A stretch of 63,248 bases of DNA, filler included, from an uncultured Methanosarcinales archaeon (GTDB taxonomy: Archaea; Nanobdellota; Nanobdellia; Woesearchaeales; CAYZNE01): assembly GCA_964405295.1 (NCBI GenBank). It is 22 parts of 22 records of this genome, joined end to end, with 100 filler letters (N's around TTAATTAATTAA, not from the genome) between each part and the next. Parts side by side here need not be neighbours in the genome. Positions count along the whole stretch, not along the records: positions 30,569 to 33,396 come from CAYONI010000086.1; 21 more parts are not named here. One strand, given 5' to 3'. Below, piece after piece: positions 1 through 33,396 of the stretch (its first letter is position 1; every line of letters begins with the position of its first letter). The position numbers and the translations under genes were made by a program. The notes under the pieces were generated by a model that ran no database searches, had not been told where the DNA came from, and saw only the letters and a list, made by a program, of their open reading frames with translations.

Positions 1-722
1 ATTGACATACGGTAGCGCATCCCATGGATGACTGTAAAGAAAACATAGTCATCAGCACCACGCGGACCATCACCGAACCAGCGCGACAAGTGTTTTTCTA
101 CTGTAGCTCTCGCCTTCTCCCCAATTGGCACTTCCCTGGTCTTTTTTCCCTTGCCATGAAGCCTCACGCTCGAACCTGAATCGAAGAAGTTAAGGTCACG
201 AATGTGCAAATCAAGCATTTCGGAGACCCTAGCGCCACTTTCATACATTAGGATCATGAAGGCAAGGTCACGGTTTCCGAACCTCGAATCCTCTGGTTGC
301 TCCAGTATGCTTTTTAAGGCATCCTCCCTTAGCCAGCCAATCATCGGTTTTTCTGCGGTGGCCATGGGAATGGAAAGGACTCCCGAGCCCCAGACTGTGA
401 GTTCGAAATCACAGTCCATCACATACCGTGCATAGGTCTTCAGGCATGCAAGTCTCTGGTTTCTTGTAGCCTTTCCAGCTCCAGACTTCTCAACCCAACA
501 AAGGTAGTCGAGAAAGAAATCACGGGTGGCTTGCTCAAAAGTGAACTTGAAAAAGTTTTTTTCAGTCTTTTCTTCTATATAATCACGAAGACGGCGCAGA
601 CAGCACCTGTAGGATGTAATGGTGTTTAGGCTACGCCCCAACTGACCCACCAGATAATCAGACAAGAAAGCTCCTGTATAGCTGAACAGAGGCTGCGTAA
701 GATGGTTTTTAATGGTTTTCAT
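1..722 (-). CDS. Tyrosine recombinase, third RIT gene (3' end truncated by contig edge)
   Basis: Not in the ORF track. Manual translation from ATG at 722 gives MKTIKNHLTQPLFSY...SLNTITSYRCCL...TRNQRLACLK...RDLAFMILMYESGARVSE...VRLHGKGKKTREVPI, a XerC/D-like core-binding domain plus the catalytic R and K motifs. Confidence 0.9.
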   Translation of the reverse strand, partial: MKTIKNHLTQPLFSYTGAFLSDYLVGQLGRSLNTITSYRCCLRRLRDYIEEKTEKNFFKFTFEQATRDFFLDYLCWVEKSGAGKATRNQRLACLKTYARYVMDCDFELTVWGSGVLSIPMATAEKPMIGWLREDALKSILEQPEDSRFGNRDLAFMILMYESGARVSEMLDLHIRDLNFFDSGSSVRLHGKGKKTREVPIGEKARATVEKHLSRWFGDGPRGADDYVFFTVIHGMRYRMS

Positions 723-2308
723 CTGAGGACCTCCTGTGGATACATGGTTTCAAACTGCTTCATGTTTTCACGGATCATCGGAAAGGAAGAGTCCACCAGA
801 GAAATATAATGGTAGGTATCCTCTAGAGAAGTGTGACCTAGGTAAGCGGAGAGATAAGGAAGCCAATAGGTATAGTCGACCTTGTCCCTGTACCACTCCT
901 CCAACTTCCTGGAGACCAGAGTATGGCGGAAACAATGTATCGTAGGCTTCTTATCCACCATTTCTGCAAATTCTGTCATATTCCAAATATTGGTGAAGTA
1001 TCTGCAGAGGCTGGTATCTACGAGATTGTTCCCCAACAAATCACCGACAAAGAAATACTGGCGGTTAGGGATACTCCTTTGAATCTCCTGGTCGTATTTT
1101 TTGGCCAGGACCAGAAGGTCCTCAGGCATGTACACGAGGCGGTCCTTCATGAGTTTTGCCCCCAGAATCTTCACCTTCCCAGTCCCGAGGTCGACATCTC
1201 CACGATTGAGCATTACCGCCTCATTCAACCTCAAGCCCATACAATAATAGAACCGGAAGATGACTGGCAGGGTCAGTCTGACAAAGGGACTTTTAGCCGG
1301 GTAGCGTTCCGAGCATGCGAAGAAGTCAACCAGCTCCTCATATCTGAAGATATGGGGTCTGCAAGAGGTAGCAGAAGGGCAGCATGGGGCAATGTATGCC
1401 TTATGCCCCCTAGAAATGAGGAAATTTGCAAACTGGCGGATGATACTGACCCGCTTGTTCCGGTACATCAGGCTTTCGGTAGGTCTTTGGATCGACCATT
1501 GCTGTACCAGGGCCTTGGTAAGGATGGGTTGGCTCTCCTTTTTCTTCTTACACAACAGGTCAAAATATTTGAGCATTTTCCGCTCTGATTCATACTTGAA
1601 TCCTGAAACCTTTTTGTCTAGGACAAAGACTTGAAGCAATTCAGCAAAGATGCTTCCAAATTTGTAGTTCTCAGCTGGATGCCCTTCTCTGTTACGGGTC
1701 GGCATTATCTCAAGAGGAAGACCCTTGGCTGTCTTGAGAAAAATGCATAATCCTCTTGCTACGTACCGGTAATCCTCTCTAGAAGCTAGGGTCTGTATCC
1801 GATTCTGGTGCCAAGCATTGATAAAATCTGGTGTAATATCCTCTATTCGTCCTATGTCTTGCTCACAGCAATAACGATCGAACGATTTCAGAGCAGCATC
1901 CTCATCTTTGTATCTCTTTCCTTGTTGTTGTTTGATGCTGATAAATTCATCAATGAACTCAGCCAAGATACTTTTGCACTCATAAGATTTTTTCAATACG
2001 ATCGGTACCAATAAGCTTTCAGGATTTTCTGCATTGAGGTAGAGGGAAAAACCACGAACCGCAGCAAAAAGTCCCTTCTTCGAACTTGGTGAACAATCCT
2101 CTATTGAAGCGAGCCATTTGGTTATGAGATCCTGCGTGAAAACAGGAGCTTTGATATCTATTTCGATGCAAAATCGGTCGAATATTTTCAGATCCCAAGT
2201 CGCATGGGCAAAAGTTACTCCTGAGGCCTGCTTTTGTTGTATAAATTCAGTTATCTTCAGACCAAGGACACTTTGGTATTCTTTTTTGTAAAATGATGAC
2301 TCTTTCAT
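719..2308 (-). CDS. Tyrosine recombinase, second RIT gene, with a triplicated N-terminal domain
   Basis: Catalytic motifs GLRLNE, AKLMKDR, IHCFRHT, YLGH and TYHY. The likely start is ATG 2308 (MKESSF), which overlaps the upstream stop and follows a GGAGG RBS. Confidence 0.9.
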   Translation of the reverse strand: MKESSFYKKEYQSVLGLKITEFIQQKQASGVTFAHATWDLKIFDRFCIEIDIKAPVFTQDLITKWLASIEDCSPSSKKGLFAAVRGFSLYLNAENPESLLVPIVLKKSYECKSILAEFIDEFISIKQQQGKRYKDEDAALKSFDRYCCEQDIGRIEDITPDFINAWHQNRIQTLASREDYRYVARGLCIFLKTAKGLPLEIMPTRNREGHPAENYKFGSIFAELLQVFVLDKKVSGFKYESERKMLKYFDLLCKKKKESQPILTKALVQQWSIQRPTESLMYRNKRVSIIRQFANFLISRGHKAYIAPCCPSATSCRPHIFRYEELVDFFACSERYPAKSPFVRLTLPVIFRFYYCMGLRLNEAVMLNRGDVDLGTGKVKILGAKLMKDRLVYMPEDLLVLAKKYDQEIQRSIPNRQYFFVGDLLGNNLVDTSLCRYFTNIWNMTEFAEMVDKKPTIHCFRHTLVSRKLEEWYRDKVDYTYWLPYLSAYLGHTSLEDTYHYISLVDSSFPMIRENMKQFETMYPQEVLR

Positions 2309-3093
2309 TTGAACACCTCCGGGACACCGATAGGGCCGAGAGGTATTGAGCAATGCATCATCCTCTCTTGGTCTATGCTCAAATAGGGATCTATGGATAA
2401 GGGGCTGTCATGTCCAAGAAATCCGGACACCAGCTCATGACTCACATTGCACCTTAAAAGATCAGAGGCAAGTGTTCTTCGCATGATTTGCATCCCCGAT
2501 GGTTGTCCGTCAGGTTTTTGTGTCACTAGCTTTGTGGATGCTGCAAAACAGTTTGAACTAGCCTTAAGTCTGCCAAAAGGGAATCGATGGGAGACAAATA
2601 GGTAAGGAGAGTCGGTCTCGGGCCGATGGTCCAGCACGTAATCGGCAATTGCATTCCCGACTACAGGGATGAGAGGGAGAACCATCTCTTTCTTTGTTTT
2701 CTGCTGGACCAACCTTATGTGGTTCTCAATCCATGAGATGTCGGAGAACTTGAGATTGATGATATCCACCGATCTTAGTCCGAGGTACAAGGCTAGCATA
2801 GCCATGGCATAGCTACGGTTTAGATAATCACCCTTAGAGTTCCTTGCTGCACATATTTCTCTCTTCTGTTCCTCTGAGAGGATAGTTACAATCTTGCTAG
2901 GGATACGGTATCTGGTCTTGATTGCATGTTCGAGCATCCTATCCACAAGGTTTTTGCGCCCAAGATATCTTACGAACATTCTGATCCGGTACTGATAGGC
3001 ACGTTTTCCGTTGTTTGTGGAATGACCATTCGTTTCAGCTTCATATCGCAGACAAAGCTCACGGGTCAGTCCTGTTGGGTTCATGCATCCACA
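2305..3093 (-). CDS. Tyrosine recombinase, first RIT gene (5' truncated)
   Basis: Motifs LGLRSVDI, QQKTKK, IMRRTLAS, LGH and IDPY. Confidence 0.85.
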   Translation of the reverse strand, partial: CGCMNPTGLTRELCLRYEAETNGHSTNNGKRAYQYRIRMFVRYLGRKNLVDRMLEHAIKTRYRIPSKIVTILSEEQKREICAARNSKGDYLNRSYAMAMLALYLGLRSVDIINLKFSDISWIENHIRLVQQKTKKEMVLPLIPVVGNAIADYVLDHRPETDSPYLFVSHRFPFGRLKASSNCFAASTKLVTQKPDGQPSGMQIMRRTLASDLLRCNVSHELVSGFLGHDSPLSIDPYLSIDQERMMHCSIPLGPIGVPEVFK

Positions 3094-30468: not shown

Positions 30469-30629
30469 NNNNNNNNNNNNNNNNNNNNNNNNNNNNNNNN
30501 NNNNNNNNNNNNTTAATTAATTAANNNNNNNNNNNNNNNNNNNNNNNNNNNNNNNNNNNNNNNNNNNNGTTATACGACATATTACTCGGAGCCGACAAAT
30601 TTATATAAAACAGAAGTCCCTTTCAGATT

Positions 30630-31076
30630 ATGAGAATAAAAGTAGGAAATTTAGATTTAACAATAAGAAAAGCAACATTGCAGGATTATAATTACTGTTA
30701 TAAATTATTTAAAAGGGATATGTACCAAGTTATTGAAAAGTACTGGGGCTGGAAAAAAGGTAAGTTTAGAAACAATTTTATTCTTTCCCAAGTAAAAATT
30801 TTAGAATATAATAACAAAAGATTTGGATTTTATCAAATATCTATAGAAAATGGAGACTATTACATCAAAGAGATTCACATTTCAAATAATCTTAAAAGGA
30901 AAGGAATAGGTTCTAAATTATTAAGTATAATACAGGATGAAGCTAAGCAGAAAGGACATAAGAAAATTTTACTTCAGGTTTTCAAAGACAATCCTGCTAA
31001 GAGATTATACAAAAGACAAGGTTATAAAGTTAAAAAAGATAAAGGGCCTTCTGTATTGATGGAAAAGAGGATATAG
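30630..31076 (+). CDS. GNAT family N-acetyltransferase
   Basis: Acetyl-CoA motif KRKGIGSKLL and NPAKRLYKRQGY. Confidence 0.9.
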   Translation: MRIKVGNLDLTIRKATLQDYNYCYKLFKRDMYQVIEKYWGWKKGKFRNNFILSQVKILEYNNKRFGFYQISIENGDYYIKEIHISNNLKRKGIGSKLLSIIQDEAKQKGHKKILLQVFKDNPAKRLYKRQGYKVKKDKGPSVLMEKRI

Positions 31077-31078
31077 TA

Positions 31079-31204
31079 TCGGCTCCTGTGTCATACGCTT
31101 CGGATTTCTTTCAGAAATCCTTGGGGTCGCTACGCTTCTCACTTCGTTCGACCCTCGTATAACAGTAATTTGCCAAGTTATACGTAATATTAATCGGTCA
31201 GCCC
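31079..31204 (+). repeat. Structured junction between units 1 and 2
   Basis: In order: TCGGCTCC, CTGTGTCATAC, hairpins at 31102-31120 and 31124-31154, CGTATAAC (31156-31163), a 13-nt spacer, GTTATACG (31177-31184) and GGTCAGCCC. Confidence 0.85.
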
Positions 31205-31242
31205 TCAGAAGATTTAAATATATATAAGAATTTTTTAGAATT

Positions 31243-31674
31243 ATGGATGAAAAAAATATCAAAGAAATTTTGCAAATCATTCTAGATTGTCTTCAAGATA
31301 AAGAATTTGTTTGGAGACTTGAAGGAAGTGCTAATCTAAAAATTCAAGATGTTGATATTTCTGTTCAAGATTTAGACATCACCACAAATAATAATGGAAT
31401 TGAAATTTTTAGAGATGCCTTGAAGAAATATATTGTTAAAGATTTTTTCAGTCAAAAGATAAATGGTTACTCAATAGTCTGCGACATTAATAATTTTGAA
31501 GTTGAGATAAATTCCTATGGTGACAGAGAATTGGATATGTTTGATAAGACTGAAAAAATCTCATGGAATGATTTGCAAATTCCGATTTTACCTTTAGAAT
31601 ACGCTAAAAAATTCTATGAATTAATTAATCGAAAAGAAAAAGTTGATCTAATATCTAAGCATTTAACGGGCTGA
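31243..31674 (+). CDS. Pol-beta-superfamily nucleotidyltransferase-like protein
   Basis: WRLEGSANL...VQDLDIT contains the GS and DxD motifs. Confidence 0.7.
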   Translation: MDEKNIKEILQIILDCLQDKEFVWRLEGSANLKIQDVDISVQDLDITTNNNGIEIFRDALKKYIVKDFFSQKINGYSIVCDINNFEVEINSYGDRELDMFDKTEKISWNDLQIPILPLEYAKKFYELINRKEKVDLISKHLTG

Positions 31675-31733
31675 CCTGTGTCATACTGTGCCTACGCTTC
31701 GCTTCGGCATTTTTCTTGCAGAAAAACGTATAA

Positions 31734-31958
31734 CAGCCAAATTTACAATGTGAAGATTACTTGGCAATTCTTACAAAAAATGAAATAATTCCTGTTGACT
31801 ACACACCAGAAGATTGTAGAGCATTAGTCAAGAAAGCATTTGTTGATAGAAATTACAGAGAGCAAGAATTAATACAACAAGCTTCCAGTTTTAGAACTGA
31901 TGGCAGAGCCACAGAAAGAGTAACAGATTTAGTTTATCAACTTCTTGAAAGCAAATAA
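31734..31958 (+). pseudogene. 3' fragment of a gene (GT-B / sugar-epimerase-like C-terminus) beginning at the unit-2 right end
   Basis: The frame is open from 31734, immediately after the TAA in CGTATAAC, has no ATG, and ends DGRATERVTDLVYQLLESK. Confidence 0.45.
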
Positions 31959-32324
31959 TTTTTTCTTGAGGTCTTCAGCCAAATTTATATTAACTAGCTT
32001 TTTTGGTTTTTCTTCTAAGACATTCATTCCTTTTTTATTATATCTTGGAATAAGATGCCAATGAACATGTTTTGTTTCATCCATATACACCAAATAAACT
32101 TTTTTTATTTTTAATGCTTTAAGCATAGCGTCTCTTACAGCATCAACAACATCCATTAAATGTTCGTATTCTTTTCTCTTGAGCAAATGCAAATCTGTAA
32201 CTTTTTTCTTCCAGACAATAACTACATGTCCTCTTGTTATAGGATAATTTGCTAAAGTTGCGTAGAGATTTTTATCTTCAAAGAAAACTGCTCCCTTTTT
32301 TGGTTTTGGTAAATCCTTGTTCAT
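31929..32324 (-). CDS. HIT family hydrolase
   Basis: HVHWHLIPR histidine triad and PITRGHVVI. Confidence 0.9.
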   Translation of the reverse strand: MNKDLPKPKKGAVFFEDKNLYATLANYPITRGHVVIVWKKKVTDLHLLKRKEYEHLMDVVDAVRDAMLKALKIKKVYLVYMDETKHVHWHLIPRYNKKGMNVLEEKPKKLVNINLAEDLKKKLFAFKKLIN

Positions 32325-32608
32325 AGTTTAAACATAAATAGTTTATTATTTAAGTATTTCTTTTTTACATGTAATTAAAGTATCTAAAGTTCTCTCCTTC
32401 CCTTGATGTGTTTGTTAGATGTGGCTTCGCCCTTTAAAACGGCGTTCTCAAAAACTCTTCGAACGAAGTTTGACCACATTCTGTATGGTCAAAGAACATA
32501 ACAGGAATTTCCAAGTTAGTTTCAATAAGTGGGCGAGCTAAAAGTTAGTCAAATTAAAAATTTGAGAAATAATAAAAAAGAGGTTGGCGTTTATTGTTTC
32601 TTTGCTTT

Positions 32609-32926
32609 TCAAATTTCAAGTGCTTTTTCTAACTGTGTAATTGGGAATCCATGCTCTTTAGCCATTTTTCTTGCACTTGGTTCAGAACCTAAATAACCTT
32701 TACTAATTCTTTCCAAAAGAGAGTGTCCATAACTGGTTTGTATACCTTCTTTAAGTGCTTTTTCTAACTGTGTAATTGGGAATCCATGCTCTTTAGCCAT
32801 TTTTCTTGCACTTGGTTCAGAACCTAAATAACCTTTACTAATTCTTTCCAAAAGAGCTTGATAATTATCCCAGTCTGGAAATTGTTTTCTATATGCATCA
32901 TTAATTGTTCTACTTTGATTTATCAT
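32609..32926 (-). CDS. Hypothetical protein with an exact internal duplication
   Basis: LLERISKGYLGSEPSARKMAKEHGFPITQLEKAL occurs twice. TATA-like TTTAAATA lies upstream of ATG 32926. Confidence 0.6.
   Translation of the reverse strand: MINQSRTINDAYRKQFPDWDNYQALLERISKGYLGSEPSARKMAKEHGFPITQLEKALKEGIQTSYGHSLLERISKGYLGSEPSARKMAKEHGFPITQLEKALEI
32618..32856. repeat. Two identical 104-nt direct repeats (period 135 nt)
   Basis: 32618-32721 is identical to 32753-32856. Confidence 0.9.
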
Positions 32927-33175
32927 AGACAATATAATAAATAACTAGTATTTAAATCTTTCGATTAATTTACTACTATCAAGTTATTACTTTTCATAAA
33001 ACTACACCAACCTCTAAAATAAGCTCGCCCGCTTACTTTGGATTTTTCGGCTTCGCCGAACGTTGCACTAAAATTCAATTCTTCGGATAGTTTAACAGGA
33101 ATTCCTAAGTTATACGAAATTGAGAAAAAGCCTTTAAACCAAACATTTATAACTTCTACTATATAAAATAACAAT

Positions 33176-33396
33176 ATGAAAATATTTAGTGAGAAAATAT
33201 GGAAAAGACACACCAATCCTTTAAGTGGCTGGACTCGAGTAATGGCCTTCTTCTTAATTCCAATATCAGTTTGGTTCCAAAATTGGTATTTTCTAATAGG
33301 GCTTTTAATATTTTTTGCTATCAACCCTATACTTTTTCCCAAACCAAAAAATAAAAATAATTGGATGAGTAAATCTATTTTAGGTGAAGAATTATG
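33176..33396 (+). CDS. Small membrane protein, DUF6653-like (3' truncated)
   Basis: Pattern WKRHTNPLSGWTR...INPILFPKP...WMSKSILGE. Confidence 0.65.

Follow-up and report, generated by a model that had tools for sequence, protein, structure and literature searches.

A probable integron-like gene-cassette array associated with XerA-like recombinases in DPANN archaea

Introduction

Integrons are defined by IntI, and the extra domain of IntI, near patch III, is held to enable the reading of folded attC sites. The strict consensus of attC is RYYYAAC/GTTRRRY, and classical cassettes are mostly promoterless, co-oriented and expressed from a common promoter. Small gene modules are also found in Xer-dependent systems, namely the integrative mobile elements exploiting Xer (IMEX), for example the CTX phage, and the pdif modules of Acinetobacter plasmids, where short inverted-arm sites bound the modules; such a site is a duplex of 28 bp, with two arms of ~11 bp and a centre of 6-8 bp, used by the housekeeping Xer. 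In this paper we looked at a stretch of 63,248 nucleotides (the window), which consists of 22 small contigs of one metagenome-assembled genome (MAG), here G000, with N spacers between them. The finding concerns one whole contig, C86, which lies at 30569-33396 of the window (2828 bp) and carries small genes separated by recurrent junctions. We read C86 as a fragment of a chromosomal gene-cassette array in which a XerA paralogue captures cassettes in an integron-like manner, as part of a system found across DPANN archaea, and we give this reading a probability of about 0.8. Its observed basis is the anatomy of the sites, their covariation, the linkage to a recombinase, the turnover of cassettes between congeners and the presence of the same cassette in different contexts.

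The arrays share many traits with bacterial integrons. They are made of mostly single-gene cassettes, their long sites are imperfect hairpins with ...AAC and GTT... at the base, a tyrosine recombinase lies divergently at the array head beside a half-site, cassettes are exchanged between genomes, arrays are hypervariable among close relatives, and the cargo is rich in GNATs, toxin-antitoxin pairs, NUDIX proteins and methyltransferases. The closest bacterial likeness is to sedentary chromosomal integrons with long, homogeneous attC sites. Yet the present recombinase has no IntI-specific insertion and scores as XerA-like, the cassette genes lie in both orientations and seem to have their own promoters, and the arrays add hairpins upstream of the AAC, cassette-specific repeats and many collapsed sites. 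With IMEX and pdif modules the arrays have in common a Xer-family recombinase, inverted-arm sites around small gene modules and tandem accumulation at one locus. Unlike in those modules, the link is to a dedicated paralogue and not to the housekeeping Xer, the sites are directly repeated, and most of them are long folded hairpins; their centres range from 4 nt to well over 100 nt and only those of one genome, G099, are dif-like.

In archaea, integrons defined by IntI or by attC covariance-model matches were found in 75 of 6718 genomes, and a small number of MAGs from Woesearchaeales and Pacearchaeales were listed that have 2-4 attCs but lack an IntI (Ghaly et al., 2022; Sci Adv, PMC9668308). 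The present arrays, like those of that survey, are attC-type arrays on archaeal chromosomal contigs, but here one 3'-end motif by itself occurs in 183 of the 401 genomes of one order, and the arrays are linked to a recombinase that is not an IntI.

Genomes compared

The genome G000 is 1.27 Mb in size, in 98 contigs, with ~30% G+C. It is archaeal, since it has a gene for the TATA-binding protein (TBP) with both repeats; among the controls, TBP matches were found only in four archaeal genomes. No small-subunit rRNA gene, archaeal or bacterial, is present in the assembly. The comparison set comprised 401 genomes of the same archaeal order. G labels stand for the genomes compared, with G000 as the source genome, and L labels for fetched loci or contigs of relatives.

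The cassette array on contig C86

Three TAAC-N12/13-GTTA junctions and two half-sites lie between unrelated small genes on C86. The initial annotation had noticed recurrent junctions at 31156-31184, 32496-32520 and 33091-33116, and these coordinates and the half-sites are confirmed. TAACAG-N7-10-AAGTTA occurs three times in the 63-kb window against 0.08 copies expected, and none of 100 shuffles reached three. The half-site sequence GTTATACG occurs six times in the window against 0.95 expected, five of the six on C86, and none of 100 shuffles reached six. Across the whole 1.27-Mb genome the full TAACAG-N7-10-AAGTTA motif is confined to C86. The features of the contig, in window coordinates, are as follows; accessory modules J1 to J4 are named after its four junction stretches.

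30569..30580, plus strand: right arm (R'-type half-site, GTTATACG...) at the first base of the contig and start of cassette 1; the half-site proper is 30569-30576
30588..30595, plus strand: left inverted repeat of cassette 1, 8 nt exact, pairs with 31079-31086; kept with the cassette in G241 and G222
30630..31076, plus strand: cassette 1 gene, GNAT acetyltransferase of 148 aa (PF00583, E 2.5e-12)
31079..31086, plus strand: right inverted repeat of cassette 1, partner of 30588-30595
31102..31154, plus strand: two accessory hairpins of module type J1, upstream of the left arm, in a stretch that folds at z = -4.25
31156..31184, plus strand: collapsed cassette site 1, with left arm CGTATAAC, 13-nt centre and right arm GTTATACG
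31196..31204, plus strand: left inverted repeat of cassette 2, 9 nt, pairs with 31668-31676
31243..31674, plus strand: cassette 2 gene, small nucleotidyltransferase-like, 143 aa (PF10706 at 19.9 bits, below the cut-off of 21)
31668..31676, plus strand: right inverted repeat of cassette 2, partner of 31196-31204
31677..31736, plus strand: accessory module J2, ending in the left-arm half-site CGTATAACAG (31727-31736), with no right arm after it
31737..32399, no strand: rearranged stretch without end repeats of its own; its best inverted repeat of 7 nt is at background level
31761-31958, plus strand: open reading frame (ORF) of 65 aa without Pfam family, overlapping the 3' end of the HIT gene
31929-32324, minus strand: HIT-family gene (PF01230, E 1.5e-13)
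32458..32493, plus strand: accessory hairpins of module J3 (hpA 32458-32467, hpB 32469-32493)
32496..32526, plus strand: collapsed cassette site 2, with ACATAAC, a 12-nt centre containing GGAA-T-TTCC, GTTAGT and TTCAAT; its junction core is 32496-32520
32531..32539, plus strand: left inverted repeat of cassette 4, 9 nt exact, pairs with 33022-33030
32609..32932, minus strand: cassette 4 gene, orphan ORF of 107 aa with no family above cut-off (ORF call and Pfam)
33022..33030, plus strand: right inverted repeat of cassette 4, partner of 32531-32539
33033..33090, plus strand: accessory module J4; contig positions 2465-2535 have counterparts in many genomes, with identity of up to 98%
33091..33116, plus strand: collapsed cassette site 3, with TTTAAC, a 12-nt centre containing GGAATTCC, then GTTATACG
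33176..33396, plus strand: cassette 5 gene, DUF6653 (PF20358, E 2.3e-10), truncated by the contig end

Relative to the sites, the gene orientation along C86 is + + + - - +. The left end of the contig is an assembly break that falls within a site. The stretch 31677..31736 is a broken junction, because no right arm follows CGTATAACAG, and the 65-aa ORF behind it may be what remains of a gene after the site was rearranged. Reading of the sequence shows a TATA-like box ~22-29 nt upstream of the ATG of the GNAT gene and another one before the nucleotidyltransferase-like gene; these are putative promoters. In cassette 4 the orphan ORF has an internal tandem duplication with a period of 135 bp (107 nt at 32615-32721 and at 32750-32856, 99% identical), so that the predicted protein carries a repeated segment.

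The cargo had been described as GNAT, nucleotidyltransferase, HIT, DUF6653-like and orphan genes. Pfam supports the GNAT, HIT and DUF6653 assignments and leaves two ORFs (31761-31958 and 32609-32932) without a family above cut-off, but the nucleotidyltransferase appears only as a sub-threshold PF10706 match. The hairpins that had been noted upstream of the AAC are real, as 31077-31200 folds at z = -4.25 and none of 200 shuffles folded equally well; the remaining three junction stretches give z of -0.7 to -1.7, which is individually not significant. The J1 module is conserved in G241, G222 and L149, and J2 recurs at 85-96% identity in other genomes.

The arms on C86 are GTATAAC and GTTATAC, which depart from the strict attC consensus. 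An Rfam cmscan of three arrays with E up to 1 gave only two weak, irrelevant matches and no known RNA family. Two motif searches were set aside. The loose pattern TAACAG-N7-10-AAGTTA matched 36 genomes among 61 relatives, but a reversed control was similar, so the pattern is too loose; one look-alike of it (L015) falls within a gyrase-like coding stretch. In viral contigs, TAACAGKAATT-N3-5-AAGTTA gave 91 single matches, none with palindromic flanks and all due to chance, and the element was not detected there with this pattern.

Architecture of the sites

Two parts of the site are conserved across copies, a left arm that ends in yTAAC and a right arm GTTA-nn-(T)TCAAT. What lies between them varies greatly. 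In related arrays the spacing from TAAC to GTTA runs from tens of nt to ~210 nt (at L151 the arms are roughly 70-210 nt apart, counted from printed sites), and in public records the halves of the inner stem are 42-136 nt apart. In the long sites, TAAC is followed by an A and then by a run such as GCGATTAAGAG, which pairs with CTCTTAATCGC preceding an unpaired GAT and the GTTA, while the interior is variable. This is the layout of attC: the arms form the base, an inner stem and bulged bases follow, and the tip varies; the bulge is of 2-3 nt (GAT) on the 3' side of the hairpin, and the tip can be branched. At L350:8140-14132 and L151 the tips of the long sites have conserved elements, a CTTGCAG loop, CCAAAT and a TTTTTGC-nnn-GCAAAAA mini-hairpin, and these shared elements indicate a three-armed fold.

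Many sites are collapsed, with 4-15 nt between AAC and (G)TT. In the short sites of C86 and L149 the ends of the inner-stem halves abut, which leaves small central palindromes that differ from site to site (GGAATTCC, GCAATTGC, GGGCCC, GCGCGC, GGGCTTACCC), and in the sites of the single-contig genome G099 AAC and TTA are even closer, only 4-5 nt apart. The sites of C86 keep only the AAC/GTT arms with 12-13 nt between them and have no inner stem or tip. At the end of the GNAT cassette, TAAC and GTTA enclose a 13-nt centre on C86, whereas in G241 and G222 their distance is roughly 70-80 nt. The short C86 junctions thus appear to be attC-like hairpins that have lost their interior, presumably by deletion, and C86 itself is a worn array fragment. 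Its collapsed sites are probably weakened or fixed. The initial annotation had taken the short AAC-GTT distance, with the hairpins outside, for an 'inside-out' design. This has to be given up, as the related arrays and the array on contig C2 of G000 enclose an attC-like hairpin between TAAC and GTTA, and the outside hairpins are additional modules.

These accessory hairpins, one or two upstream of the left arm, are of few sequence types and are present beside long sites too. In hpB of J3, an 8-bp stem lies within a predicted hairpin of 10 pairs, and 7 of these 10 pairs are compensated on both sides among 13 copies. A further layer of pairing is formed by the cassette ends. Each complete cassette of C86 has its own inverted repeat of 8-9 nt around the gene, and such end repeats sit outside the accessory hairpins and directly after the right arm. 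When the two ends of one cassette are compared, in 17 cassettes of five arrays (the C2 array being left out), the median length of the longest exact inverted repeat is 12 nt, and it reaches at least 11 nt in 12 of the 17, whereas mismatched cassette ends give a median of 7 nt and reach at least 11 nt in 8 of 272 pairs.

One may ask whether such units are tandem non-autonomous transposons, like miniature inverted-repeat transposable elements or mobile insertion cassettes, with terminal inverted repeats that are moved by a transposase elsewhere. The units do end in inverted repeats (GTTA... and ...TAAC, plus further inverted repeats), and insertion sequences (IS) lie in or beside arrays, namely a rve-domain transposase in L149, an IS110-family gene in L157 and an IS200-like gene in L158. 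However, beyond the 8-12-nt arms the inner repeats are cassette-specific and covarying, which points to pairing and not to a protein-binding sequence. The units also share one junction head-to-tail, no target-site duplication was seen, what regularly lies beside the arrays is not a transposase but a tyrosine recombinase with a half-site, and in G000 the matches of the site model are limited to C86 and the C2 array. This explanation is extremely unlikely.

The recombinase and the attI-like site

The initial annotation expected the recombinase to lie off C86, and a candidate is indeed found on C2, a chromosomal contig of 155 kb. A XerA-like tyrosine recombinase gene at C2:114708-115544 is preceded, about 105-125 nt upstream, by an attI-like variant half-site (114584-114603), and five long sites follow, away from the gene, down to ~108150. 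Three of the five match SYGATGTTA-N4-CAAT. Each has accessory modules before it and a cassette with its own end repeats after it, and all five fold as hairpins with a GAT bulge, most with a branched tip (z -2.8 to -6.4). The fifth cassette contains, just before its site, an 86-nt tRNA-Gly(ACC)-like gene called by ARAGORN (C2:108369-108454).

In three genomes of the same genus (G001-G003) the recombinase and both flanks are matched at 68-88% identity, and within the array the site modules match but no cassette coding DNA does. In G001, both flanks of the G000 platform lie ~2.2 kb apart on contig C14, whereas the recombinase and sites are on a different contig, C101; the platform as a whole may have another location in G001 or may be mobile.

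G000 has 14 tyrosine-recombinase domain matches and none of them exceeds the IntI cut-off. The best IntI (TIGR02249) piece in G000 reaches 129 bits against a cut-off of 265, with model positions ~181-237 unmatched, and the array-linked proteins reach 184-229 bits, in two stretches to either side of the IntI-specific insertion, which has no match. On the archaeal XerA equivalog model NF040815 (cut-off 220 bits), a G000 protein encoded on contig C1 scores 269.8, over the cut-off, and the G099 protein scores 192.1, under it. Both of these proteins fall short of the IntI cut-off, again with matches in two pieces that leave out the insertion. The nearest solved structures are XerA of P. abyssi (E 3.8e-33) and IntI4 of V. 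cholerae (E 3.8e-32, N-terminal half only).

Five genomes with arrays on long contigs were compared. Three of them (G099, G360 and G319) have a Xer-like gene of ~270-300 aa at a distance of 2-5 kb from the array, its 5' end facing the array, and in a fourth, G078, the related gene is 0.3 kb from a contig end. The proteins of these four genomes form one clade (clade B, FastTree support 1.0), apart from the XerA equivalog-like clade A, which holds the C1 protein of G000. Both clades hold in a tree of 48 proteins (these are quick trees), and the catalytic R, K, HxxR, H and Y, the complete RKHRHY set, are kept in both.

To examine the linkage, the flanks of 20 genes of clade B and 20 of clade A were taken, with up to 10 kb per side. 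An nhmmer model, based on 23 sites, matched 6 of the 20 clade-B loci, always upstream of the 5' end of the gene and on the opposite strand, and 0 of the 20 clade-A loci. The 125.9 kb upstream of 24 clade-B genes contain 44 copies of a right-arm motif on the array strand versus 8 on the opposite one, compared with 6 and 4 in 208 kb downstream of clade-B genes and with 10, 6, 6 and 9 beside 20 clade-A genes, in ~182 kb each. Upstream of the gene, eleven of the 20 clade-B contigs run for no more than ~2 kb. Among homologues at least 42% identical to the G099 enzyme, 27 of 45 plus-strand matches start no more than 2 kb from the contig start, and among those 35-41% identical 12 of 39 do. This contig-end bias of clade-B-like genes is suggestive and is expected if repeats lie there, with the caveat that identity separates the clades uncleanly.

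Upstream of clade-B starts there is an attI-like motif, in gene orientation ATTG-nnnn-TAAC-N3-5-TATATGCGAAG, whose distal half is the reverse complement of the cassette right arm. By regular expression, at least 14 of 23 clade-B loci have it 94-399 nt before the start, and more are visible by eye. In five platforms with recombinases of 71-72% identity, the alignment runs from the gene to the attI-like motif and is lost beyond it.

These data bear on whether C86 is an ordinary cluster of attC sites lacking integron-integrases (CALIN), that is, a set of classical attC sites served in trans by a true IntI elsewhere in the genome or in another organism. The long sites have the attC layout of an AAC...GTT imperfect hairpin with bulges and a variable tip, and the Woesearchaeales and Pacearchaeales MAGs with attCs and no IntI mentioned above, as far as the parts of that paper drawn on here go, would suit a CALIN. 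It is nevertheless very unlikely here. A XerA-like gene with an attI-like half-site heads arrays in many genomes, cassette genes lie in both orientations, and the extra conserved hairpins and cassette-specific end repeats are not known as parts of classical cassettes. In addition, 0 of 401 genomes exceeded the IntI cut-off, in a search without a positive control.

Another hypothesis is that the modules hitch-hike on the housekeeping XerA and on dif-like sites, in the manner of IMEX or of pdif in Acinetobacter. It draws on the XerA-like character of the recombinases and on G099, where the sites are two inverted arms of ~11 bp around a 6-bp centre, as in dif, and where no separate clade-A XerA is found. 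On the other hand, none of the 20 clade-A loci has a site-model match and the motif is not enriched there; most centres are of 12 nt to well over 100 nt and folded, not of 6-8 bp; and the sites are directly oriented within an array, not alternating. Also, no single conserved chromosomal dif with the same arms was found by regular expression in G000 and five complete or near-complete genomes. We regard this explanation as very unlikely. One intergenic dif-like candidate was seen in G000 (C5, near 11991), with 11-nt arms that match at 9 of 11 positions, a 6-nt centre and a right arm of the type TTAAACTCAAT, which is the type of the cassette sites.

Exchange of cassettes between genomes

In a BLAST search of C86 against the 401 genomes, matches were found in 305. 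A large share of them falls on the four intergenic junction stretches and not on the genes, with identity of up to 98%, and often there are several per contig, spaced 0.5-2 kb apart. Twenty such regions were retrieved, and the modules in them stand in rows. For example, nine junctions built in this way separate small genes on the 7.5-kb contig L149, where most genes run opposite to the site orientation.

The cassette of the GNAT gene recurs at 81% identity in G241 and at 68% in G222, both from other families of the order. In the three-way alignment, homology runs from GTTATACG to CGTATAACA; the flanks are unrelated and the neighbours differ. The suggestion that C86 is a piece of a site-specific cassette array is supported, homologous cargo with the same ends does stand beside different neighbours in other genomes, and the alignment indicates that the cassette is the unit of exchange.

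Among 211 ORFs of the fetched regions, Pfam finds GNATs, ParE/MazE/PIN pairs, NUDIX, HAD, MazG, JAB and methyltransferases as well as APH-type kinases, MFS proteins and peptidases. These families lie in or near arrays, alongside housekeeping genes such as those for ribosomal proteins and RNA polymerase. Two marine-metagenome runs, X1 and X2, both hold C86. Contigs in the two runs share 31685-31726 and then run into a normal short site.

At L157:5222-6680, an IS110-family transposase gene lies ~0.3 kb after a cassette site, which resembles the bacterial IS elements that target attC sites.

Distribution

The pattern SYGATGTTA-N4-CAAT, from the 3' end of the sites, occurs in 183 of the 401 genomes of the order, with ~396 matches versus ~34 in a reversed control, which agrees with the proposal that the motif family is enriched in related genomes. 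A stricter pattern, searched in one genome per prokaryote species, gave at least 122 loci. Among the 80 loci listed, 31 are labelled Woesearchaeota, 9 Pacearchaeota, 10 Nanoarchaeota/Nanobdellota and 2 Aenigmatarchaeota, 7 are plain 'archaeon', 10 have other archaeal labels and 11 have bacterial labels. An exact 8-nt hairpin partner 42-136 nt upstream, preceded by TAACA, is present in 38 of these 80 loci and in 1 of the 11 bacterial-labelled ones. Five of these genomes were examined, and three of them have a Xer-like gene at 0.6-7.2 kb from the site, with the 5' end of the gene facing the site; in 2 of these 3 the contig identity was inferred from the numbering. Judged by these motif matches, the family appears widespread in genomes labelled Woese- or Pacearchaeota.

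The Woesearchaeales and Pacearchaeales CALINs of Ghaly et al. (2022; PMC9668308) may belong to the present family, going by the parts of the paper drawn on here; the searched parts of its supplement hold no attC sequences. Within the portions of the literature consulted on cassette systems of DPANN or Woesearchaeales, on XerA-linked elements and on integron-like archaeal recombinases, we found nothing beyond these CALIN listings. Such arrays are likewise not mentioned in the consulted parts of a review of archaeal tyrosine recombinases (PMC8371274) or of Smyshlyaev et al. (2021; PMC8138268).

Other features of the window

At window positions 1-3093, the 3.1-kb contig C76 of G000 has 46% G+C versus ~30% genome-wide and carries three tyrosine-recombinase domain matches in a row on the minus strand. 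It looks like a recombinase-trio element or a foreign contig.

Discussion

Several observations weigh against the reading of C86 as part of an integron-like array served by a XerA paralogue. The first group regards the enzyme. The C2 recombinase of G000, which is linked to an array, lies outside clade B on a long branch near clade A, so that the link is to XerA-like paralogues generally and not to one clean clade, and its NF040815 score of 217.3 bits is just below the cut-off of 220. G099 seems to have no clade-A XerA, and its array-linked enzyme could have a housekeeping role. The absence of an IntI over the TIGR02249 cut-off in all 401 genomes comes from a search in which the controls gave no match. 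The recombinase is usually 0.2-7 kb from the first recognisable site and not always adjacent, and 5 of 10 clade-B loci with at least 9 kb upstream gave no site-model match, from which it follows that the site models miss variants.

The second group regards the cassettes. The three C86 sites, having no inner stem and tip, are possibly dead. Homologues of the nucleotidyltransferase elsewhere are mostly without sites, and only one of 8 loci (G366; L133 left out) has a site upstream. X1 and X2, for which only Logan contigs were used, show no circle and no alternative cassette order. One X1 contig joins 31737 to 32937 and skips 1199 nt, with 49 nt on the shorter side, and this joint is unexplained; one of its ends lies just after the half-site and the other at no recognisable site.

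With these points taken into account, the expectations set out in the initial annotation fare differently. The idea of a new capture system stands as regards the cassette array, but the system is not categorically new: it is integron-like with a recombinase of the Xer type, which is not an IntI. A recombinase consistently beside the arrays was named as a thing to look for, and a Xer-like clade is indeed linked upstream, yet half of the clade-B loci with a long upstream stretch have no site match. Circular junctions, which were proposed as a check, were not read in the contigs of X1 and X2.

A mechanism that would fit the array anatomy can be suggested. Each cassette would consist, in order, of the right arm GTTA-nn-(T)TCAAT, an inverted repeat, the gene or genes, the matching repeat, one or more accessory hairpins and the left arm ...yTAAC, with one or few genes in either orientation and seemingly with their own promoter. 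In the standard site, TAAC and GTTA would form the base of an attC-like imperfect hairpin. The platform would be a divergent XerA-paralogous tyrosine recombinase beside an attI-like half-site, where the array begins. This enzyme would exchange strands at or beside the AAC/GTT boxes, so cassettes would leave the array as circles and be integrated either at the attI-like site or at another cassette site. Once a cassette is circular, its own end repeats would lengthen the stem of the site outward, which may help extrusion or folding. The recombination itself, including its chemistry, the crossover point and the use of a single- or double-stranded substrate, is what we infer from sequence comparison.

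On balance we lean slightly towards a broader proposal, that a second class of integrons, independent of IntI, exists in DPANN archaea of the Woese- and Pacearchaeota type and possibly in further ultra-small prokaryotes. Here a plain XerA paralogue without the extra domain would shuffle cassettes, and the sites would combine branched hairpins, accessory hairpins and cassette-specific closing stems. If this is true, cassette capture works without the extra domain of IntI, and the system either is a relative of bacterial integrons that resembles their ancestor or arose independently; it would help to trace the origin of integrons from Xer-type enzymes. Surveys built on IntI and the bacterial attC model would largely miss such arrays, while the collapsed sites of C86 suggest a route by which arrays decay or become fixed. 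The arrays would then be a major overlooked route of gene flux in these lineages, and they would explain part of the genome plasticity of DPANN archaea, with their tiny genomes and host-dependent life.

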